Positions 19,196 through 43,118 of a stretch of DNA of 44,212 bases are shown piece after piece. The notes beneath the pieces were generated by a model, which ran no database searches, was not told where the DNA came from, and worked only from the letters and a program-made list of their open reading frames with translations. Position 1 is the stretch's first letter. Every line of letters begins with the position of its first letter. Position numbers and translations under genes: made by a program. This DNA comes from Clostridiales bacterium (GTDB taxonomy: Bacteria > Bacillota > Clostridia > Monoglobales > WRBX01), in the NCBI GenBank assembly GCA_031263785.1, contig JAISFC010000010.1:1-44212 (forward strand). Reading direction: 5' to 3'.

Positions 19196-19273
19196 TCACC
19201 AAATACATTATATACGTCCATTGATAATTTGTCAATACATTTGTGTAAGAGCATATTTCCCGCATTATAAGCG

Positions 19274-23331: not shown

Positions 23332-23360
23332 ATTATACATCTTTTTTGCCGGCTTGTCAA
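23332..23360 (-). promoter_or_regulatory. Consensus sigma-A promoter of the 852-aa gene
   Basis: TTGACA-17 bp-TATAAT on the minus strand. Confidence 0.8.
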
Positions 23361-23745: not shown

Positions 23746-23774
23746 TTGACAAGGATAGCTTTTTGGTATAAAAT
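23746..23774 (+). promoter_or_regulatory. Sigma-A promoter of dnaN-recF
   Basis: TTGACA-17 bp-TAAAAT directly before the AGGAGG RBS of dnaN. Confidence 0.75.
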
Positions 23775-23796
23775 ATCAGCAGGAGGGGGTAATATC

Positions 23797-24960
23797 ATGA
23801 AATTTGTATGTGAACGGGATATCTTTCAAACAGCGGTCGGCACGGCGATAAAAGCCGCCGCCACGGGTACGCTTGCACAGATTACGTCGGCGGTGCATAT
23901 CACGGCACGCAAGGACAAAACCATTACACTCACCTGTAATAATCTGGAAATTTCGATAGATTACACTGTTGAGGCAAGCGGCGTTTCTAAGGAAGGCACG
24001 GGCGCGATTCCCGCGAAGATTTTGGGCGATATGGTCCGCAAATTCACGGCGGACAACGTCACTGTGCAGTGCGATGACAAGCACAATTTCACAATCGACT
24101 GCGGCAAGGCGCACTTTGAAATTAACGGGCTGGACCCGGCGGAATTCGCGCTGCCGTCCGAGATTGCGCCGGAATATTCCATCAGCGTCAAGGGCGAAAC
24201 TCTGCGCGAGCTGATACGCGGCAGCACATTTGCGGCTTCGACAAGCGAGTCGCGGGTGATGCTCACGGGATGCATGCTGGAGCGCGACGGGAAATTTATT
24301 CGCATGGTCGCGCTGGACGGATACCGCATGGCAATGCGCCAATTTGCGCTGGAATCCGCCGCGACTAAAAAAGGCGGCAAGGCGGAAAAAGACAAGAAAA
24401 TCAGCAGTGAAAAGACGGCGGTGGTGATTCCCGCGAAGGCGCTGAACGATTTCAGCCGCTTTACAAGCGAGGGCGAAAACGACGTGGAAATTAGCGTAAG
24501 CCGCAGTCACGCCGCGTTCGAGATTCAGGCGGAGACGGGGAAAATGCGCTTTATATCGCGTGTTTTGAACGGCGAATTCATGGACTACACCCGTACGCTC
24601 CCCAACGAGAACGAATGCGGAGTAACGGTGGAAACGTCGGCATTAATTCGGGCGTTGGAGCGCACCACGTTGGTCATCGCCAGCGACCAAATGCGCTCGC
24701 CCCTGCGCATGAACATCGGCGGGGACGGCATCCACATGAGCTGCGCCACAATCGCAGGGAAGGCGGAGGACCACGTTCAGGCGGAGATAAGCGGAAACCC
24801 GCTGGAAATAGGCTTTAATCACCGTTTCCTAATTGAGGCGGTGCGCAACGCCGACGCCGAAAAAATACATATACAGTTTGCGGGAAGTGTGCGTCCGTGC
24901 CTGATTCAGCCCGCGGAGGGCGATGATTTCAAGTATGTGGTGCTTCCCGTGCGGCTGTAG
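23797..24960 (+). CDS. dnaN: DNA polymerase III beta sliding clamp
   Basis: Starts MKF, contains MVALDGYRMA and IGFN, and ends YVVLPVRL. Confidence 0.95.
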   Translation: MKFVCERDIFQTAVGTAIKAAATGTLAQITSAVHITARKDKTITLTCNNLEISIDYTVEASGVSKEGTGAIPAKILGDMVRKFTADNVTVQCDDKHNFTIDCGKAHFEINGLDPAEFALPSEIAPEYSISVKGETLRELIRGSTFAASTSESRVMLTGCMLERDGKFIRMVALDGYRMAMRQFALESAATKKGGKAEKDKKISSEKTAVVIPAKALNDFSRFTSEGENDVEISVSRSHAAFEIQAETGKMRFISRVLNGEFMDYTRTLPNENECGVTVETSALIRALERTTLVIASDQMRSPLRMNIGGDGIHMSCATIAGKAEDHVQAEISGNPLEIGFNHRFLIEAVRNADAEKIHIQFAGSVRPCLIQPAEGDDFKYVVLPVRL

Positions 24961-24963
24961 CGC

Positions 24964-26019
24964 ATGATTCTTTCGCGGCTGGAACTGAATAATTTTCGGA
25001 ATTACCCCCATAGGGAGTTCGTTTTCAGCGACGGCGTGAATGTCATCCGCGGCGCGAACGGCACGGGCAAGACCAACATTTTAGAGGCGATACACATGCT
25101 TGCGACGTCGAAATCGCACAGAATGGCGCGGGAGCGTGAGATAATCCTGCATGGGCAAGCGTTTTCGCGGATACGCGCGGAATTTTCGGCGCGAGGGCGG
25201 GTAAATGAGCTGGAGGCGCGGCTGGGTCCCGACCGCCGCAAGCAATTCAGCAAAAACCATGTCCCCGTCAGGAAAACGTCTGATTTAATAGGGTTTTTGA
25301 GCGTCGTGATGTTCTCGCCCGACGACCTGCAAATAATCAAAGGGTCCCCGCAAGCGCGGCGCAAAACCATAGATTTGTCGCTGTGCCAGATGAGTAAACG
25401 TTATTTTCAGTTGCTTTCCAACTGCAACCGTGTTTTGGTGCAAAAAAATAAATTGCTCAAGTCCGACGCGGCGGCGGACGCGTTGGAGGTTTGGGACATG
25501 CAATTAGCCCGATTCGGCACGGAAATAAGCCGTCTGCGCGCGGAATACATACAAATCCTGAGCGAGGAAGCGCGTGGACGCTTTAGCGAGCTGATGGGCT
25601 TGAAATTGGGGCTCACCTACACGTGCGGGGCGGGCGAGGGCGTCGCCGATGAGGATGCGTATTACGACGAGATTGTGCGAAACGCTGATAAAGAGAGGAA
25701 ATATCGCCAATCGCTGGTGGGTCCGCACCGCGACGACTTCCACATCACGATTTCCGAGCGGTCGGCACGGGCGTACGCGTCGCAGGGGCAGCAGAGAAGC
25801 GCCGTTATCGCGCTGAAAATGGGGCAGGTTGAGATTCTGCGGTCGCGCTTGGAGGAACCACCGCTGCTCCTCCTCGATGACGTGATGAGCGAACTCGACA
25901 GCGCGCGCCAAAAATACATACTTTCCTCTGCAAACGACGGGCAGGTTATAATTACCACCGCGAATAAAGCCCCAGCGATTCCGCAGGCGGGATGCAATGA
26001 GATAGACGTGGAAAGTTAA
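24964..26019 (+). CDS. recF: DNA replication/repair protein RecF
   Basis: NFRNY, GANGTGKTN, GPHRDD, SQGQQRS and LLLDDVMSELD motifs. Confidence 0.96.
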   Translation: MILSRLELNNFRNYPHREFVFSDGVNVIRGANGTGKTNILEAIHMLATSKSHRMAREREIILHGQAFSRIRAEFSARGRVNELEARLGPDRRKQFSKNHVPVRKTSDLIGFLSVVMFSPDDLQIIKGSPQARRKTIDLSLCQMSKRYFQLLSNCNRVLVQKNKLLKSDAAADALEVWDMQLARFGTEISRLRAEYIQILSEEARGRFSELMGLKLGLTYTCGAGEGVADEDAYYDEIVRNADKERKYRQSLVGPHRDDFHITISERSARAYASQGQQRSAVIALKMGQVEILRSRLEEPPLLLLDDVMSELDSARQKYILSSANDGQVIITTANKAPAIPQAGCNEIDVES

Positions 26020-26122
26020 AAAAAATCACCCCCAAAAGGGGATGATTTCATCGTACTCGCAATGATTATACTTAGTATAATCCTACTTGCAACGATTTTT
26101 ACTTCGTTCATTTGTTTTTACA
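26018..26122 (-). ncRNA. Putative trans-acting antitoxin sRNA (toxin-less unit 0)
   Basis: Minus-strand TTGACA (26157-26152)-17 bp-TATAAT (26134-26129), ending in a hairpin plus T-run at 26018-26048. The body is complementary to the RBS and 5' CDS of the two downstream peptides. Ends are approximate. Confidence 0.6.
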
Positions 26123-26174
26123 ATTATTATTATAAACCATTTCCGGTGTCTTGTCAAGTATTTTTTTTTTGCTA

Positions 26175-26203
26175 TTGACAAATTACGACTTTTACTATAA
26201 AAT
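26175..26203 (+). promoter_or_regulatory. Sigma-A promoter of type I toxin mRNA, unit 1
   Basis: TTGACA-17 bp-TAAAAT. Unit 2 has TTGACA-17 bp-TAGAAT at about 26593-26621. Confidence 0.75.
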
Positions 26204-26288
26204 ATCTACAAGAGAGTTAAATACTGAAAACAGCGACAAGCTGGACGGTTATGCTCACTCCCATCTTAAAAAGAGAGGGGGTGATTGT

Positions 26289-26399
26289 ATGATAATTGCA
26301 TTGATTATACTTAGTATAATCTTACTTGCAACAATTTTCTCAGCAATAGTTAGTTTATATAAACTAGCAAAGAGAAATCGATATTATACAAAGAAATAA
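26289..26399 (+). CDS. Type I toxin-like peptide 1 (36 aa, holin-like)
   Basis: MIIALIILSIILLATIFSAIVSLYKLAKRNRYYTKK: one TM helix and a basic tail, with a GAGGGGGTG RBS held in a hairpin. Confidence 0.85.
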   Translation: MIIALIILSIILLATIFSAIVSLYKLAKRNRYYTKK

Positions 26400-26544
26400 C
26401 CGCCAACGTAGCAAGCGATTAGACGGTTATTTCAACCCAATATCGTGAGCATAGCCGTTTGACGTTTTTGCTCTCTTACTTTTTTTGCGATTATTTATAT
26501 TTTTCGCTTATCGACAATAATTATACTAGCTACTTTTCTTCTCT
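26390..26544 (-). ncRNA. Putative cis-antisense antitoxin RNA, unit 1
   Basis: Minus-strand TTGACA (26579-26574)-17 bp-TATACT (26556-26551), ending at the GAAATAACCG...CGGTTATTTC hairpin over the toxin stop. Ends are approximate. Confidence 0.65.
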
Positions 26545-26705
26545 ACTATTAGTATAAACTATTTTCAGCGTCTTGTCAAGTATTTTTTTCTATTGACAAA
26601 TTACGACTTTTAATATAGAATATCTACAAGAGAGTTAAGACTGAAAACAGCGACAAGCTGGATGGTTATGCTCACTCCCATCTTAAAAAGAGAGGGGGTG
26701 ATTGT

Positions 26706-26816
26706 ATGATAATTGCATTGATTATACTTAGTATAATACTACTTGCAACGATTTTCTCATCTATAGTTAGCTTATATAAACTAGCAAAGAGAAATCGATA
26801 TTATACAAAGAAATAA
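26706..26816 (+). CDS. Type I toxin-like peptide 2 (36 aa)
   Basis: Not in the ORF track. MIIALIILSIILLATIFSSIVSLYKLAKRNRYYTKK, one residue different from peptide 1 and offset by 417 bp. Confidence 0.85.
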   Translation: MIIALIILSIILLATIFSSIVSLYKLAKRNRYYTKK

Positions 26817-26957
26817 CCGCCATCACTGCTAACGATTAGACGGTTATTTCAACTGAATTTTCGTGAGCATAGCCGTTTGACGTTTTTGCTCTCTTACTTT
26901 TTTTGCAATTATTTATATCTTTCGCCTATCAACAAAAATTATACCAATTCTTCCTAT
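26807..26957 (-). ncRNA. Putative cis-antisense antitoxin RNA, unit 2
   Basis: Minus-strand TTGACA (26992-26987)-17 bp-TATAAT (26969-26964), with the same terminal hairpin as unit 1. Ends are approximate. Confidence 0.65.
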
Positions 26958-27043
26958 ACATTTATTATAAACTATTTTCGGCGTGTTGTCAAGTATTTTT
27001 TTTGCCGTTTGCGTGTCGATTATCCGCGAAGCTTGCTATTCCC

Positions 27044-30000
27044 CTAATACATCGTCACCACCAGCGGCAACGGCTGCATCCTCGTCTTCCCGAGGTATCG
27101 CAGCACCGTCGTATAATCCGCGGCATCCACCCCCAAATACTCGTTTATATTGTAAATCGTCGTGATCCCCTCAATATTATCATTCCCCACCTGCCCCTTA
27201 ATCGTGTTCAGGTCCGCCGTCGTTATCGCATACTTGTTCACGCTGTTCAGGTAAAACGCCCCCGCATATAGGTACGCTATATCATTAATCGACAGCACCG
27301 ACGCCTCCGTCAGCCCCCCCACATTCATCTTCGTCCCGTCAATGTACATCTCCGCCCATAGGTAGCTCTCCTGCCTCACCGTCCCAACATCCCCGCCGTT
27401 CGACCCATATCGGCTAAACCTCAACATATACTTCGGCGCACCTGTGTCGGGGTCGCTCAGCGCAATCGCCTCCGCCAGCTCCTTCGGTATCCTCATCTCC
27501 CAATTGTATACCGCCAAACTCTTGTTCGCCATCACTCCCGTCATGTTCATCGGCTGCGTGTACACTATATCCTCCACCCGCCCGATAATCGTCCCGTCCG
27601 TCTCCACCTCATATAACTCCACCCTGATCCCCGCGTCCATCCTCTGCAGGTCCGGCGTGTAGTTTAGGTCCGCAAAATATGCCCGCTGCTTCCCCGTCAG
27701 CACCGCCCGCCCGCGCAATGTCACCTCAAAATCCGTTATCTCGTCGAATATCATCACCTCAACCGTCGGCACCCCCAAGTTCACATACTCGTTCGTCACC
27801 GACTCAATATACCCCGTCGCTAGCACGTACGCCCCGTAATCCCCATAATTACTGCTAATAACCCCCTTGCTCCCGCCCATCCCAAATAGCGGATCCTGCT
27901 GAATCCCGTTGAGATTGCTATACTCCTTAATGTGGAACGGCACATTAAACTCCGAATCGTCCCTAACCTTGTAATGAATCCTAAAATACGGCGTCTGATT
28001 CTCCACCGTATGCGGCACGGACGGCAACGATTGCCCCTCCAGCACCGCCCAACTCAGCAGAAACTTCCCCGCCGCGTTGATAACACTCACCACCTCCGTC
28101 GACGAATCATAAGGCGTCAAATCGCTCAGGGACGTCCCGTTCACCACCACGCTCCCCAGCCCCTTTATGTCAAAATCAATCGTCTCAAGGTCGGTAATCT
28201 CAATCTTGTCGTTGTCGAATAGGAACGGCAACGCCATCGCAAACCCGTCCAGCCCATATGGGTTCTCAAAAGAAACATCAATCGTCCCCTCCATCCCCAC
28301 CTTCTTCTTCGTGTCGTCGGGGGACATAAGCACACTAATCGCGCCCGCCTGCAGCACCTGGCTGTTGATATCAAACGCCACGCGGGTGTACGCCTTGCCA
28401 TAGACGCTCTTGCCCGCCGTAACCTTCACCAGCTCCTCCGCCGCCGTCTCCCTCAGCCAGAAATATACCTGCCCGACGGAATCCGTGTAGACGTCCTTGA
28501 TTCCATAAACGTTGCCCGCCGGCGCCTGCGCCATGTCCACATTGCCGATTTTCCCGCTCAATACCTGCGCGTTCGCCACCGCGGGTCTGCCCACCTGCCA
28601 TATATTGTAGTACACATTTTGGTTCGAGTTGTTTCTCGGTCGCGGACCCTTAAGATTATTAACGTACACGCTCCCGCCGTTAATTCTAACCTCCCCCACT
28701 CCCTCATAAACGCTCCCGCCGCCGATTGCCGCGCCGGTGTCACCGTTTGCTATCGCCCGCACGGTGCCGCCGTCTATCATGATTTCTGCCCTGGTCTGGA
28801 ACTGCATCCCCGTCCTTCCGCCTATTCCCGCGCAGGATACCATGCCGATTGCGGTCACACTCCCTCCGGTGATAGTTACGATGCTGCCCTGATTCTGGAC
28901 GCCAATCCCCGCGCCGGCGCTGCCGTCCGTGGGTCCGCTTGCAACAATATCGCCGCCGCTGATAATTACATTCACTTGGACGCCGTTACCATCGGCTGAA
29001 TTGCCAAGACCAATCCCCGAACATAGATTTGATCCCCCCGTCGCCCTTACCTTTCCTCCCGAAATATTAATGTAAATACGGGAATTGCTACCGGCGGAGA
29101 GTCCATAGCCTATTCCCGCGCCGCTGACGCTGGTTGCCGTAATGTCGCCTCCGGATATATTAATGGTCCCTTGCTGTTGTGATGCAGTGCCTCCGCCTAT
29201 TCCCGCGCCTCCCGTGCCGTAAGCTTTAATTATACCGTCGTATATATTGATTATCCCAAAGTGACCGGCAGTCCCGCCGGTTCCTCCGCCGATAGCGGCG
29301 CTATTATTGCCATACGCTGTAATTTCACCGCCGGCTATGTTAATTTCATTTATAGTGGACATAGTGCCGCCGCTGCTTCCCCCGGTGCCTATGCCCGCGG
29401 AGTTGCCCTTTCCATACACCGTGATTTTTCCGCCGGATATATTAATTTTATCAAGCATATTAAGATATCCGCAGCCGATGCCCGCGCCATAATTATTCCC
29501 GGAGTCTATCGTAATATTTCCTCCGGATATATTAATGGTTCCGGTCGTGCTTATACCGGTGCCGCCTACATACCCATTTCCTATACCCGTGCCGTAGTTA
29601 AAAGTAGGAATCTTGATTATACCGCCGGTTATGGTAATTTCGTCAACGCGCCGACTGCCGCCAATTCCCGCGCCGGCGTAACCACTAGCGTCGTTCATCC
29701 CCCTAGCTTCAATCTTGCCGCCGTTTATCTTAATTATTCCGCTGTCGCCAAACCGACCCGCGCCGATGCCGGAGCCCGTGCCGCCTTCACATATAGCGAG
29801 AATTTCCCCGCCGTTTATCGTAATTTTGCCGCCGTGCCCCGTTATGCCGTTGTTTGACGGGTTTTGCCCGCCGCCGATGCCCGCCGCTTCAGTTGCCGCC
29901 CGCGCTTCTACCTTGCCGCCGTTTATCGTAACTACGCCGTTGCTCCCACGATAGCCGCCGCCAATGCCCGCGCTGGTGCTGCCCCCCCGCGCATATATTG

Positions 30001-33000
30001 TGCCGCCATTTATCGTGATTTCTCCGCTCTCTTTCGTCGTGGCGCTCCCGATGCCCGCGCCTAAGGAGTTTGTCGATGCGTTTAAGCTACCGGGACCGTC
30101 TATAGTTATTTTTGTGCCCGCGTTCACTTCCAGCGCAGCGTGGTTCGTCACTCCATAAAGTATATTCGTCCCCATAATCACCAAGTTCACCGTCGTACCC
30201 GTGCCGTCAAGCAGAAATGCAGCGCTGTCCGCCAGCCCGTTCATGTTCATATGTACATTCACCAGCGCGACATTCGCGGTAACCCCGGTCGCCACCACGA
30301 TTCTGTATTTAGTTAAAGTCGCATTTTCATTCACAATCATATAATCGCTGTTGCTCGCGAGCGTTATAACGCCGCTCATCTCCGTCCAGCCGGGACCACC
30401 GGCAGATAGGTCGTTAAGCGACAAATCAATTGTCCCGGGACCAACCAAGGTTTTCATCTGCGTGGTCGCCCCGCGCAAATAGCTCCCCGAGTAGGTTATC
30501 CCCATCAGCTTAAACTTTATTTCCTCCTCCACCGTGCCGCTGTCGTTCGTCATCGGTAGGTAGAGGTACAATCTGGAGTTGCTGTCCGTGTATACGTCCC
30601 TAATTCCATACACCTTCAACGTCGCGTTTGCCGTCTGCTCGCACCCAATCGTGTCAATTACGCCGCTCGTCACCTTCGAGTCCGGGAAGGACGGGTTCAA
30701 AGTGAGCGTATTCCTGTAGACGTCCAGCCCCGCGCTATTTTTAGGCGCTATAACGCCGCCGTTCACCGCGCGCACGCTCCCGCCGTTTATCGTCAGCGAT
30801 GCCTCCGAGCCGTCCGTCGTGGAGCTCGCCCCCAAGCCTATATCGTTTTGCCCCGTCGCGGTTGCACGGGTTGTCCCGCCGTTTATCGTGATTGCAATAG
30901 CTTCGTCCGAGGACCCCCCTGTGCCGATTCCCGCGCCGCTCCCGCCGCCTTGCGCCGTTATCCTGCCGCCGTTTATCGTTATTTCAGTCGAGCCGCCCGT
31001 CACCGTTCCGCCCGAGCCAATCCCCGCGCCCGCTCCCTTGCCCAGCGCGTCTATCGTCCCTCCGTCTATCGTAATCGTGCCGCCGTTGCTCCCTTTGCCG
31101 CCGCCTATCCCCGCGCCGCTTCCGCCGCCCGACGATGCCGTTATAGTTCCGCCTGTTATATGTATCTCCCCTGCCTCGCAGCCGTCCGAGCTGCCTATCC
31201 CCGCGCTGTCCGCGCCGCCCTCCGCCGTTATATTTCCGCCGCTTATCGCTATTTTGCCCGCCTCGCCGCCGATGCCCGCCGCCTTTTGCCCGCCGCCCGT
31301 CGTCCAAGTGTACGCCCAAATAGTCGCTTCGCCGGTATCTTCCGATATAATAATCTCATCAACCGTCCCGCCGTCGCCCGCTCCGATTGCCGAGCCGCCA
31401 TTGCCGCACCAAGCATCAACATCGCCGCCGCTTATCGTTATCTTGCCCACCTCGCTGTCCGTTCCGCCGCCGATTGCCGCGCCACCGCCCGAGGACCCCA
31501 CGTCTATAGTGCCCGCTGATATAACAATTTCGTCAATCTTGCCGCCCTCGCCCGCGCCTATTCCCGCGCCTTTAGCTCCAACGCCATTGTTAGTTGTTCC
31601 AATGTTAATCGTCCCGCCGTCAATATTAATAGTCCCCACCGTGCCGCCGCCGATTCCCGAGCCGCCATCCACGGTCATAACCTTATCCTCGGAGTTTTTA
31701 ATGCTTATTTCGCCGATGGACGCGCCCTCGCTTGCGCCTATTCCCGCCGCTTTTGTGCCGCCCGTCGCCGTAAACGTTGTATTATCTTCTATTATAATGC
31801 TGCCTTCCGAGCCGTCAGTACCCTTGCCGACGCCAATCGCCGCGCCGCTACCTTCATTTAATACGTTCACATCGCTTCCGGTAATCTCAATCGTGCCGCC
31901 CCATCTCGTATCCACGCCCGTGCCGATAGTCGCCCCGGCGCCCTCGTTGCCCGCCACGATAGTCGAGTTCGTAATCGTGATATCCCCCGCCGAACCGCCG
32001 CCAATTGCGGAATTACCGCTCATTCCGGTCGATGTAATTTTAGAGTTATCTATCTTAATATCACTCGTCCCTTTGAACGACGCGCCTATTCCCGTCCCGT
32101 AGCCTAAGCCGGATTGACTTACTTCATTTGTCTGCACGACATATCCACCGCTATTTATCGTTATCACGCTGTGGTTGCCGTGCGTCTTCGTCCCGCCGCC
32201 GCCGCCAATTGCCGCCGCCTGCCCGGGGTTATCCTTCGTGTCCTCATCCGTACTGCCGCTTGCCCAAACCTGCACGATACTACCAACTATATTTATTTCG
32301 CCGCCGTTTACCGTTGTCGCCGCGTCCGTGGCATACCCGCCGCCGATTCCCGCGCCCCACTCACCTGCCGCTACCACGTTCATCTCAACAGATCCCGTAT
32401 TTCTTATATTTATTACTCCCGCGTTCGGGTTGCCGCCAAGCCGCTCATCGCCGCCGCCTATGCCCGCCGTATAACCAATAGCATTTAACGTCGCTCCACC
32501 CCAATACGGTCCGGAGTTCTCTATTATCAATTCCGCGCCCTCCGGCACGTAGATTCCCGTATTATCTTTCGATTGAATGGTGGTGGCGTAATGCGGATGT
32601 CCGCCTCCTGCTACTGAATACACTTGCAAAGTCACTTTTGCTCCCTCGCCTATTGATAGTGCCGGGAGACCGGTTTCCGTTATTATGCTATCGCCGTACA
32701 TATATATAACCGCTTCCACTTCCATAGCTACGGCAAAACTATGCGTCCAATTAGCGGTGGCTATTTGATAATTTCCGTTCTCCGTGATTGTAATTATACC
32801 GTTCTGAACTACCCACCCCGTGTCTCCTTCGCCCTCAACTTCGGAATCTATCGTTACCCATTCGTCGGCTGCCTTCGCCACATTTACATCATCCACATCA
32901 TTTATCTCCGGGTTGGGCATTAGAGCCAATATCATGGCGGACATCAACAAAACCGCCCATATTTTCCTCCATTTTGCACTCATCATTATCTTCCGCAACC

Positions 33001-33022
33001 CCTTCCACATGCTCCCCCGCAC
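27044..33022 (-). CDS. Giant secreted Gly-rich repeat (beta-solenoid-like) surface protein with cohesin/dockerin-like C-terminus
   Basis: Signal-peptide-like N-terminus, dozens of GAGIGGG...ITIxGGxI repeats, two YGIxDVYTD modules, and a C-terminal ITTADL...VDAADY dockerin-like duplication. Confidence 0.85.
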   Translation of the reverse strand: MRGSMWKGLRKIMMSAKWRKIWAVLLMSAMILALMPNPEINDVDDVNVAKAADEWVTIDSEVEGEGDTGWVVQNGIITITENGNYQIATANWTHSFAVAMEVEAVIYMYGDSIITETGLPALSIGEGAKVTLQVYSVAGGGHPHYATTIQSKDNTGIYVPEGAELIIENSGPYWGGATLNAIGYTAGIGGGDERLGGNPNAGVINIRNTGSVEMNVVAAGEWGAGIGGGYATDAATTVNGGEINIVGSIVQVWASGSTDEDTKDNPGQAAAIGGGGGTKTHGNHSVITINSGGYVVQTNEVSQSGLGYGTGIGASFKGTSDIKIDNSKITSTGMSGNSAIGGGSAGDITITNSTIVAGNEGAGATIGTGVDTRWGGTIEITGSDVNVLNEGSGAAIGVGKGTDGSEGSIIIEDNTTFTATGGTKAAGIGASEGASIGEISIKNSEDKVMTVDGGSGIGGGTVGTINIDGGTINIGTTNNGVGAKGAGIGAGEGGKIDEIVISAGTIDVGSSGGGAAIGGGTDSEVGKITISGGDVDAWCGNGGSAIGAGDGGTVDEIIISEDTGEATIWAYTWTTGGGQKAAGIGGEAGKIAISGGNITAEGGADSAGIGSSDGCEAGEIHITGGTITASSGGGSGAGIGGGKGSNGGTITIDGGTIDALGKGAGAGIGSGGTVTGGSTEITINGGRITAQGGGSGAGIGTGGSSDEAIAITINGGTTRATATGQNDIGLGASSTTDGSEASLTINGGSVRAVNGGVIAPKNSAGLDVYRNTLTLNPSFPDSKVTSGVIDTIGCEQTANATLKVYGIRDVYTDSNSRLYLYLPMTNDSGTVEEEIKFKLMGITYSGSYLRGATTQMKTLVGPGTIDLSLNDLSAGGPGWTEMSGVITLASNSDYMIVNENATLTKYRIVVATGVTANVALVNVHMNMNGLADSAAFLLDGTGTTVNLVIMGTNILYGVTNHAALEVNAGTKITIDGPGSLNASTNSLGAGIGSATTKESGEITINGGTIYARGGSTSAGIGGGYRGSNGVVTINGGKVEARAATEAAGIGGGQNPSNNGITGHGGKITINGGEILAICEGGTGSGIGAGRFGDSGIIKINGGKIEARGMNDASGYAGAGIGGSRRVDEITITGGIIKIPTFNYGTGIGNGYVGGTGISTTGTINISGGNITIDSGNNYGAGIGCGYLNMLDKINISGGKITVYGKGNSAGIGTGGSSGGTMSTINEINIAGGEITAYGNNSAAIGGGTGGTAGHFGIINIYDGIIKAYGTGGAGIGGGTASQQQGTINISGGDITATSVSGAGIGYGLSAGSNSRIYINISGGKVRATGGSNLCSGIGLGNSADGNGVQVNVIISGGDIVASGPTDGSAGAGIGVQNQGSIVTITGGSVTAIGMVSCAGIGGRTGMQFQTRAEIMIDGGTVRAIANGDTGAAIGGGSVYEGVGEVRINGGSVYVNNLKGPRPRNNSNQNVYYNIWQVGRPAVANAQVLSGKIGNVDMAQAPAGNVYGIKDVYTDSVGQVYFWLRETAAEELVKVTAGKSVYGKAYTRVAFDINSQVLQAGAISVLMSPDDTKKKVGMEGTIDVSFENPYGLDGFAMALPFLFDNDKIEITDLETIDFDIKGLGSVVVNGTSLSDLTPYDSSTEVVSVINAAGKFLLSWAVLEGQSLPSVPHTVENQTPYFRIHYKVRDDSEFNVPFHIKEYSNLNGIQQDPLFGMGGSKGVISSNYGDYGAYVLATGYIESVTNEYVNLGVPTVEVMIFDEITDFEVTLRGRAVLTGKQRAYFADLNYTPDLQRMDAGIRVELYEVETDGTIIGRVEDIVYTQPMNMTGVMANKSLAVYNWEMRIPKELAEAIALSDPDTGAPKYMLRFSRYGSNGGDVGTVRQESYLWAEMYIDGTKMNVGGLTEASVLSINDIAYLYAGAFYLNSVNKYAITTADLNTIKGQVGNDNIEGITTIYNINEYLGVDAADYTTVLRYLGKTRMQPLPLVVTMY

Positions 33023-36073: not shown

Positions 36074-36244
36074 CTCTAACTATATTATAACCCAAATAAA
36101 AATTTTTGTCAAGAACTTTTTATGGTTATAACCCGAAAAACTTTCGCAAATTCCCTCGCCGCAACTTTTGATATTGACAAATCTAATTTAAAATAGTATA
36201 ATTGAAATTAGAATAATCCAAAATAGAAAGTGATGTGTTGCCGT

Positions 36245-42965: not shown

Positions 42966-43118
42966 TGCTATCATCTCCTTATACTATCATTATACTACAT
43001 ATAATATGCAATGTCAATACAAAAATCAAACATGGAAAATAAATAAATATATTAGGATTATGGCTTGCAATTTTGCGGCGGATTTGTTATACTTAGCCTA
43101 ATAGGGAGATGATAGGCG

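Follow-up and report, generated by a model that had tools for sequence, protein, structure and literature searches.

We analysed a stretch of DNA of 44,212 nt from a Clostridiales bacterium (GCA_031263785.1, contig JAISFC010000010.1, positions 1-44,212 of the forward strand), referred to below as the window, which is contig C78 of a 1.45-Mb bin in 92 contigs (host genome, G000). In this window the gene recF, located downstream of dnaN (23746-24960), is followed by an AT-rich block of approximately 1 kb (30-39% GC versus 52-60% in the flanking genes) that carries two complete units of a small predicted toxin-antitoxin system, units 1 and 2, spaced by approximately 417 bp and 90-93% identical to each other. 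Directly after recF lies a toxin-less segment, unit 0, which is the subject of the present study; it is predicted to produce a small RNA, sRNA0, that may act in trans as a second antitoxin shared by both toxins.

Parts and origin of unit 0

The features of recF and unit 0 are as follows.
24964..26019, plus strand: recF, an open reading frame (ORF) of 351 aa (Pfam SMC_N, E 5.6e-19), with the stop codon TAA at 26017-26019.
26018..26025, minus strand: the U-run of the minus-strand terminator, read as an A8 run on the plus strand, overlapping the recF stop codon.
26022..26049, minus strand: intrinsic terminator hairpin with 12 pairs and a loop of 4 nt, leading into a T-rich stretch; a remodelled fold-back of Shine-Dalgarno (SD) and anti-SD sequences.
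26018..26122, minus strand: predicted sRNA0 of about 100-105 nt, with an open 27-nt 5' tail, a central hairpin formed by the palindrome, and the terminator.
26037..26062, plus strand: relic of a translation start, with the SD remnant AGGGGA, ATC in place of ATG at 26050-26052, and codons 1-4.
26063..26099, plus strand: 37-nt core, toxin codons 5-17 with the palindrome at 26064-26082, identical to the live toxins at 35/37 and 36/37 positions.
26100..26121, plus strand: relic of codons 18-24 (TSFICFY) of a divergent toxin paralogue, according to translation and profile match.
26112..26167, minus strand: copy of the promoter module D3, which the array contains three times (the others at 26534-26589 and 26947-27002; 80% and 73% identity).
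26129..26157, minus strand: predicted sRNA0 promoter, TTGACA (26157..26152), 17 nt, TATAAT (26134..26129), 12/12 consensus positions, with the transcription start presumably near 26122.

An initial annotation of this DNA had described a segment similar to the ribosome-binding site (RBS) and the first 17 codons of both toxins, in which ATG is replaced by ATC, and which lies behind a perfect minus-strand promoter, ends in a hairpin plus T-run, and has neither a forward promoter nor a fold-back untranslated region (UTR). The similarity is confirmed by a BLAST search within the host genome, where 26037-26099 matches 26276-26338 (84%) and 26693-26755 (86%), and by an ungapped repeat family (D2) with three copies. 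The altered start codon, the promoter with its 17-nt spacing and the 12-pair minus-strand hairpin (26049..26022) were found again at the positions listed above, and a plus-strand scan of 26018-26160 detected no promoter-like site.

The fold-back, on the other hand, has been kept. Each arm of the hairpin at 26022-26049 aligns with its counterpart in the anti-SD/SD hairpin of the unit-1 and unit-2 leaders (TCACTCCC...GGGGGTGAT): one unit-0 arm, TCACCCCC, corresponds to the anti-SD sequence TCACTCCC, and the other, GGGGATGAT, to the SD sequence GGGGGTGAT, with a gap of 10 columns in the loop. Its energy is -18.3 kcal/mol on the minus strand versus -12.2 kcal/mol on the plus strand, where its two G-U pairs turn into A-C mismatches and the tail reads UUUC. 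A scan for plus-strand terminators flagged none at this hairpin. Given this weakness and the lack of a plus-strand T-run, the additional suggestion of the annotation that the hairpin also terminates recF is unsupported. With its loop shortened, one of its arms changed and the A8 run of the recF stop codon next to it, the hairpin reads as a canonical terminator, albeit on the minus strand only. It is one of only two terminator-like sites in 25800-27200, versus 1.2±0.9 expected in shuffled sequences.

Exact TTGACA-N17-TATAAT sites are far more frequent than expected: seven were observed in the 44-kb window versus 0.01 expected from 100 shuffles. Five of them are located outside of the array (19207-19235, 23332-23360, 36084-36112, 36174-36202, and 42989-43017), and all five are found 10-29 nt upstream of the start of an ORF on the same strand; thus, such sites look like working promoters in this genome. 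Several of these ORF starts are very near the -10 box, and very short or absent leaders are possible. Chance is no serious explanation of the unit-0 features.

Two short ORFs are also found in unit 0. The minus-strand ORF (26111..26016, 31 aa) extends through the predicted RNA as far as the last U of the terminator run, where its stop codon starts; the plus-strand ORF (26062..26178, 38 aa) opens with an ATG that owes its existence to a T-to-A change at 26062, and it retains the hydrophobic helix of the toxin. Both are without an SD sequence.

The homology to the toxins is longer than was proposed initially. Instead of ending at 26099, it extends to codon 24, as a profile of the toxin family matches 26056-26121 (E 3.2e-6). 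The unit-0 frame reads IVLAMIILSIILLATIFTSFICFY and then departs from the family at the invariant K25; the alignment of the D3 module begins at 26121-26124, which places the fusion point at about codon 25, and the fusion presumably arose by a deletion inside a unit. Unit 0 retains the SD/anti-SD hairpin of the leader and codons 1-24, having lost the promoter, most of the leader, the start codon, and everything past codon 24. Its resemblance to units 1 and 2 is confined to the 5' part of the toxin and D3 and does not include the antitoxin body (26384-26500). We also considered unit 0 as an orphan antitoxin of the orz-only type and rejected this assignment because it has no homology to the normal antitoxin RNA of the family.

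Comparison of the segments of unit 0 with other family members revealed a mosaic pattern. In the start region (26 nt), unit 0 is identical to units 1 and 2 at 18/26 positions and to the other members at 15-19/26, whereas the other members share 21-26/26 positions among themselves, so that unit 0 is the most divergent of the six family members here. Over the 37-nt core (26063-26099), identity between unit 0 and the members other than units 1 and 2 is 24-29/37, and units 1 and 2 agree with each other at 34/37 positions; at each of the three sites where units 1 and 2 differ, unit 0 shares the state of one of them. For codons 18-24 (22 nt), the identity is only 11/22 with units 1 and 2, versus 17/22 with the unit on contig C12 of a sister genome (G001) and 16/22 with a unit on a metagenome contig (L146). 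Changes unique to unit 0 number eight in the start region and none in the core (p = 4.0e-4). Judging by these alignments, unit 0 is a mosaic stump of an older, more divergent toxin paralogue, with a core that appears to have been homogenised with the live toxins and a heavily rewritten translation start. The view of unit 0 as a decayed toxin copy is therefore correct in that it is the relic of a toxin gene, but not in making it a copy of unit 1 or unit 2.

Units 1 and 2 and their toxin family

The predicted features of the two complete units are the following.
26175..26203, plus strand: TTGACA-17-TAAAAT, the toxin 1 promoter, standing back to back with that of unit 0.
26289..26399, plus strand: toxin 1, 36 aa, with a hydrophobic N-terminal helix and a basic tail; predicted pairing with sRNA0 at 26254-26362.
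26384..26544, minus strand: predicted cis antitoxin RNA of unit 1, overlapping with the 3' UTR of toxin 1; promoter 26579..26551 on the minus strand.
26706..26816, plus strand: toxin 2, 36 aa, 97% identical to toxin 1; predicted pairing with sRNA0 at 26671-26762.
26801..26957, minus strand: predicted cis antitoxin RNA of unit 2; promoter 26992..26964 on the minus strand.

The plus-strand promoters of units 1 and 2, at 26175 and 26593, match the consensus at 11/12 positions each, and the convergent minus-strand promoters (26579 and 26992) at 11/12 and 12/12 positions. Both toxins combine a hydrophobic N-terminal helix with a basic YKLAKRNRYYTKK tail, and the YKLAK motif and the basic tail are invariant in all five aligned family members. 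In this they agree with type I toxins, which are hydrophobic peptides of <70 aa ending in a polar or charged C-terminus. An antisense gene with two hairpins, a promoter and a terminator or U-run has been kept in 7/7 complete units from three sources, and the layout of toxin and antitoxin is the same in all six aligned units. By their sequence, units 1 and 2 have the arrangement of a type I toxin-antitoxin locus whose antisense RNA overlaps at the 3' end; in this respect, the initial annotation, which had assigned each unit its own 3'-overlapping antitoxin, is supported.

The toxin messenger RNAs (mRNAs) share several structural elements. The anti-SD hairpin, formed in the leaders of both units by pairing of CUCACUCCC with the SD sequence GGGGGUGAU and also covering the start codon, is conserved across six toxin mRNAs. 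A second hairpin of 7 bp, formed by toxin codons 6-12 approximately (26303-26321 and 26720-26737; 26064-26082 in unit 0), is present in 6/6 toxin mRNAs, with compensatory two-sided changes at five of the seven pairs, and the palindrome of unit 0 corresponds to this hairpin. In addition, the leader and the 3' UTR can pair over 14-18 bp in 6/6 units, including those on L018, L023, L025, and L146, with energies of -22.6 to -27.3 kcal/mol. The leader partner is ACGGYTATGCTCAC and the 3' UTR partner is GTGAGCATAGCCGT (26245-26258 with 26445-26458, and 26662-26675 with 26863-26876); in L146, the two partners change in a matching fashion. The 5' partner shares sequence with the anti-SD arm, and the cis antitoxin extends over the 3' partner; hence, binding of the antitoxin could switch the fold of the leader, in the manner of the bsrG/SR4 or hok fold-back; this is our own suggestion.

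The minus-strand promoters within the D3 regions of the array (26490-26589 and 26904-27002) match the consensus perfectly or nearly so and are displaced outwards by approximately 60 nt relative to the antitoxin promoter of the G001 and L146 solo units, and at the position of the latter promoter the host genome has only a 9/12 site (26517..26490). The cis antitoxins of the host therefore probably carry an extra 5' extension. In the Fst/Ldr (par) systems, the toxin 5' region recurs as direct repeats in the cis antitoxin. We compared the extension of approximately 60 nt with the toxin 5' region and rejected such a Par-like design, since 74/500 and 316/500 shuffled sequences scored equally well or better; the comparison of the extension with unit 0 likewise gave 31/500 and 239/500 shuffles at least as good. 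The direct-repeat trait of Fst/Ldr was thus not found in units 1 and 2.

Searches of Pfam and NCBIfam at E values up to 10 with the toxin peptide returned no Fst, Ldr or other toxin family, and the best match, OppC_N (E 0.018), is below its own cut-off. In Rfam, the region 25500-27500 produced eight matches at E up to 10, all far under the gathering thresholds (23.4 bits versus 52 for the best of them). Three representatives of the family were found at E ≤ 0.001 among 1.84 billion proteins. Among 151 genomes of the order, the family is present in two, the host and G001, which has four solo units. The peptide profile yielded 134 pattern matches in metagenome contigs, one of which was confirmed (the solo unit on L146); a 22-mer leader pattern had no match in metagenome contigs, none of the 51 pattern matches in viral contigs were confirmed, and a protein atlas gave matches to unnamed clusters only, with values of 0.79-0.82, below the lead level. 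The DNA search of 41 genomes gave matches at E ≤ 0.001 in six, including the host; among the matches read outside of the host, only three places in G001 proved to be toxin-antitoxin units, and G010, G013, G024, and G039 have matches of 24-83 nt. A 16-mer scan of genome contigs found at least 120 stretches, and a toxin-like ORF stands beside the motif in three of the 120 listed. One of these three, L084, bears the same peptide as the C5 unit of G001; the other two, L105 and L111, were discarded because their ORFs are unlike the toxin family. Outside of the array, the host genome contains solely short promoter-like matches to it, and those on C68 and C2 were dismissed as ordinary promoters of other genes. 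As far as these searches reach, the toxin family of the host is tiny, undescribed, and unnamed.

All four full units of the sister genome G001 are solo, and its 28 short matches are all to the promoter ends of the query; one of them, on L151, was rejected as an unrelated promoter. Its recF is 45% identical to that of the host and has other genes downstream. In G001 (L164, 2586-2882), recF overlaps an ORF of 98 aa that is followed by further genes; behind the recF of the host (26019-26170), this ORF is absent and the toxin array stands in its stead. In the window, the array converges with a minus-strand ORF of 1992 aa (27044-33022) with many GAGIGGG-like repeats and an N-terminal signal-like segment, probably a large surface protein.

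Predicted sRNA0 and its proposed pairing with the toxin mRNAs

The fold of sRNA0 has an energy of -33.9 kcal/mol (z -6.4), and none of 200 shuffled sequences folded as well. We predicted duplexes of sRNA0 with the mRNAs of toxins 1 and 2 with energies of -93.9 and -93.7 kcal/mol, extending from the leader hairpin to approximately codon 24, in which both arms of the unit-0 hairpin pair with the two arms of the toxin hairpin. For comparison, 300 dinucleotide shuffles yielded -34.8±4.0 kcal/mol, with -52.2 kcal/mol for the best. When the cost of unfolding both partners is included, the net gain of the dimers is -20.3 and -15.8 kcal/mol versus -3.7±1.9 kcal/mol in 30 shuffles. The two toxins are the only strong matches of sRNA0 in the 1.45-Mb genome. 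Unit 0 is predicted to be a separate transcription unit, and its targets are located 239 and 656 bp away. In this separation and in its partial complementarity to the toxin mRNAs, the predicted RNA resembles trans-encoded type I antitoxins such as IstR-1, OhsC, AgrB, and RalA.

According to this model, the pairing rests on codons 5-17 and not on the RBS. The likeliest pairing seed is 26083-26099, which is moderately open, with a probability of being unpaired of 0.38 in sRNA0 and of 0.57 and 0.34 in the two toxin mRNAs. Loop-loop contact between the complementary hairpins of the palindromes is a further possibility; however, these loops are only 3 nt long. An RNA of about 105 nt pairing with both toxin mRNAs at their translation starts had been proposed initially. 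The part of this proposal that stands is a unit of approximately 100 nt from promoter to terminator and an in silico pairing with both mRNAs; the part that does not is the site, since the start region is where the match is worst (8/26 differences).

Taken together, these data are consistent with the following scenario. Unit 0 is the stump of a third, divergent toxin gene in an unnamed type I family, fused at codon 25 to the standard minus-strand promoter module of the array, and the toxin fold-back, its loop shortened, abuts the A8 run at the recF stop codon and reads as a terminator. If the promoter fires, an RNA of about 100 nt would be produced, and its 37-nt core, near-perfectly complementary to codons 5-17 of both toxin mRNAs, would pair with them in trans, with a weaker contribution expected from the complementarity to the SD region. 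Such pairing may block ribosome entry or early elongation, or may create a long duplex for RNase III; described antisense antitoxins act by block of initiation or elongation or through an RNase III duplex, according to the review PMC6562991. The result would be a second layer of control, at a different site and common to both toxins, on top of the 3'-overlapping antitoxin of each unit. Gene conversion (concerted evolution) may keep the core similar to the live toxins, and selection for this is putative.

The individual components of this scenario differ in strength. Given the promoter and the terminator, we estimate that transcription of sRNA0 is likely. That unit 0 is a trans-acting second antitoxin with a real effect on both toxins is, in our judgement, an evenly balanced proposition. 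The most elaborate version, in which a dead paralogue was domesticated as a shared second antitoxin, with the fold-back turned into a terminator, the promoter fused at codon 25, the core held by concerted evolution, and each mRNA guarded at both ends, is put forward tentatively and would not be our first expectation.

Several observations weigh against a regulatory role of unit 0. The 5' tail of sRNA0 is its most accessible part (unpaired probability 0.89), yet it carries 16/29 mismatches to the live toxins, and the matching core is largely folded (unpaired 0.16-0.38). The complementarity to the SD sequence and the start codon is poor, with 8/26 differences, five of them true mismatches, and the net binding energy is low compared with the approximately -125 kcal/mol of the cis antitoxins. 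Even without selection, the core could be maintained by gene conversion between the repeats, which lie 239 and 656 bp from each other. Furthermore, none of the 28 partial matches in G001 covers the leader or the coding part of the toxin, and all units of G001 are solo, so that the unit-0 design is not recurrent in the data at hand. With different neighbours of recF in G001 and a family confined to two genomes of the collection searched, there is no orthologous comparator.

Alternative explanations, known systems and implications

The strongest alternative is that unit 0 is an inert by-product of unequal recombination or deletion in the tandem array, which, transcribed or not, has no meaningful regulatory role; any pairing would be of no regulatory consequence, as both toxins are already covered by fully complementary cis antitoxins of their own. 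Duplication and degeneration of tandem type I loci are described in PMC2887945, and similar cases are the partly degenerate duplicate agrA (PMC3567139) and orz-only loci (PMC11264685). The promoter module is a repeated element of the array (D3), gene conversion alone can explain the identical core, the open 5' tail of sRNA0 mismatches the live toxins, and G001 has no second example. Conversely, a by-product of this kind has to bring together a 12/12 promoter at the right spacing, a rebuilt, strand-specific terminator, and an untouched core next to 26 nt that took eight changes; moreover, if unit 0 is transcribed, the toxin mRNAs could hardly escape 37 nt of nearly perfect antisense. We consider inertness of unit 0 a serious rival, although less likely than not.

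Another explanation assumes that unit 0 is an insulator, in which the hairpin and the strong convergent promoter stop or collide with read-through from recF, the RNA being incidental. This is compatible with the lack of a canonical plus-strand terminator between recF and toxin 1, and with the position of the convergent promoter 110 nt downstream of the recF stop codon. However, the hairpin is weaker on the plus strand and is not followed by a U-run there, the identity of the core to the toxins is left unexplained, and the leader structures of the toxins themselves would still face the read-through RNA. An insulator function appears unlikely.

Either of the two short ORFs in unit 0 could, in principle, make unit 0 a small-protein gene, since the minus-strand ORF (26111..26016, 31 aa) fills the transcript and the plus-strand ORF (26062..26178, 38 aa) preserves the hydrophobic helix behind an internal ATG. 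However, neither has a Shine-Dalgarno sequence, RNAs terminated in the U-run would mostly be without the stop codon of the former, and the latter has no promoter and lacks the family-invariant YKLAK tail; this explanation is highly improbable.

An assembly artefact, in which short reads of a metagenome bin were mis-joined or a repeat was collapsed, might be suspected for a tandem repeat inside a bin of 92 contigs, and is scarcely credible given that many positions distinguish unit 0 from units 1 and 2, unlike in a collapsed copy, and that a second assembly of a DNA run, X1 (labelled termite gut metagenome), contains one 4290-nt contig that spans the junction of recF, unit 0 and unit 1 (25700-26276) with 0 differences, although this assembly may be based on the same reads. 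X1 is the one DNA run in which the sequence is listed as present (0.80 of the sampled words); among the runs listed for the locus, there is no RNA run, and two other runs of the same study hold next to none of the sequence. As X1 may be the source sample of the window itself, the bridging contig argues against a mis-join and does not amount to independent biology. In the Logan contigs of X1, the bins 26720-26872 are without cover, a hole that by itself proves nothing. The X1 contig over the junction of units 1 and 2 (26459-26693) has a word depth of 4.8 versus 8.5-8.9 in the adjoining contigs; this depth does not equal copy number.

Returning to unit 0 as a shared second antitoxin, we compared this proposal with known systems. 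The hok/sok system has a 5'-3' fold-back, and the native units 1 and 2 can be likened to it. They likewise resemble bsrG/SR4, the mechanism of which is described in the review PMC6562991, in that the antitoxin covers the toxin's 3' end, the SD sequence is held in a leader hairpin, and the 5' and 3' parts engage in long-range pairing. Unlike in bsrG/SR4 and hok, the peptide family found here matches no Pfam or NCBIfam model.

In dinQ/agrA/agrB of E. coli (PMC3567139), as in the window, several short antisense RNAs, each with its own promoter and terminator, stand beside a small membrane-toxin gene, and pairing occurs in trans, there over approximately 31 nt of the toxin mRNA, with copies that match unequally. 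However, agrA and agrB are described as mutual duplicates that address one site, whereas the extra RNA in our case is unrelated to the cis antitoxins, is derived from a toxin stump and is directed to another part of the mRNA, and the array combines three RNAs with two toxins. SprA1/SprA1AS and SprA2/SprA2AS of S. aureus (PMC6393315) share with our locus the 3'-overlapping layout and a repression of the RBS region by pairing outside of the overlap, which SprA2AS achieves through its non-overlapping 5' domain. There, one RNA has both parts, and PMC6393315 reports no cross-regulation of paralogues; sRNA0, in contrast, is predicted to act on both toxins, and the 5' extension of the native cis antitoxins here has no similarity to the toxin 5' region.

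In yonT-yoyJ/SR6 of B. subtilis (review PMC6562991), one antisense RNA serves two toxin mRNAs, and one locus combines decay after 3' pairing with pairing of the 5' part at the RBS, as would be the case here. The difference is that SR6, a single RNA, acts with its two ends on two different toxins, whereas the array would direct two RNAs to the same mRNA, the 5'-acting one being common to paralogous toxins. Orphan orz units (OrzPmg, zor/orz of E. coli) are toxin-less units with a retained promoter in or beside tandem type I loci, where '1.5-copy' arrays also occur, and an orz-only unit was shown to be expressed (PMC11264685). Such a unit is a normal antitoxin gene minus its toxin; in unit 0, the antitoxin body has been lost and the antisense strand of the toxin 5' part is predicted to be transcribed instead.

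Thus, related layered or shared designs are known (dinQ, SR6, SprA2AS, and orphan orz), and unit 0 differs from each of them in the combination of an RNA unrelated to the normal antitoxin of the family, antisense derived from a toxin stump, predicted action on the opposite end of the mRNA, and proposed sharing by two toxins. The exact design was not found in the open-access literature by word matching, which is weak evidence of absence. By the sequence features described above, the locus appears to be a type I array of an undescribed family, in which unit 0 would work like a trans-encoded antitoxin; we do not claim membership of any named family.

These results bear on the origin of new antitoxin RNAs. 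Even if unit 0 should be a relic and nothing more, the locus is a clean example of the decay of a tandem type I array. If the proposed function is correct, a deletion in a duplicated toxin unit would set an existing promoter antisense to the toxin 5' end and instantly create a trans repressor of the surviving paralogues, and gene conversion would keep this new repressor matched to the toxins. Unit 0 would then represent pseudogene-derived antisense control in a bacterium, and the array a naturally occurring instance of one mRNA under two antisense layers that differ in mechanism, with one of the RNAs shared by paralogous toxins.

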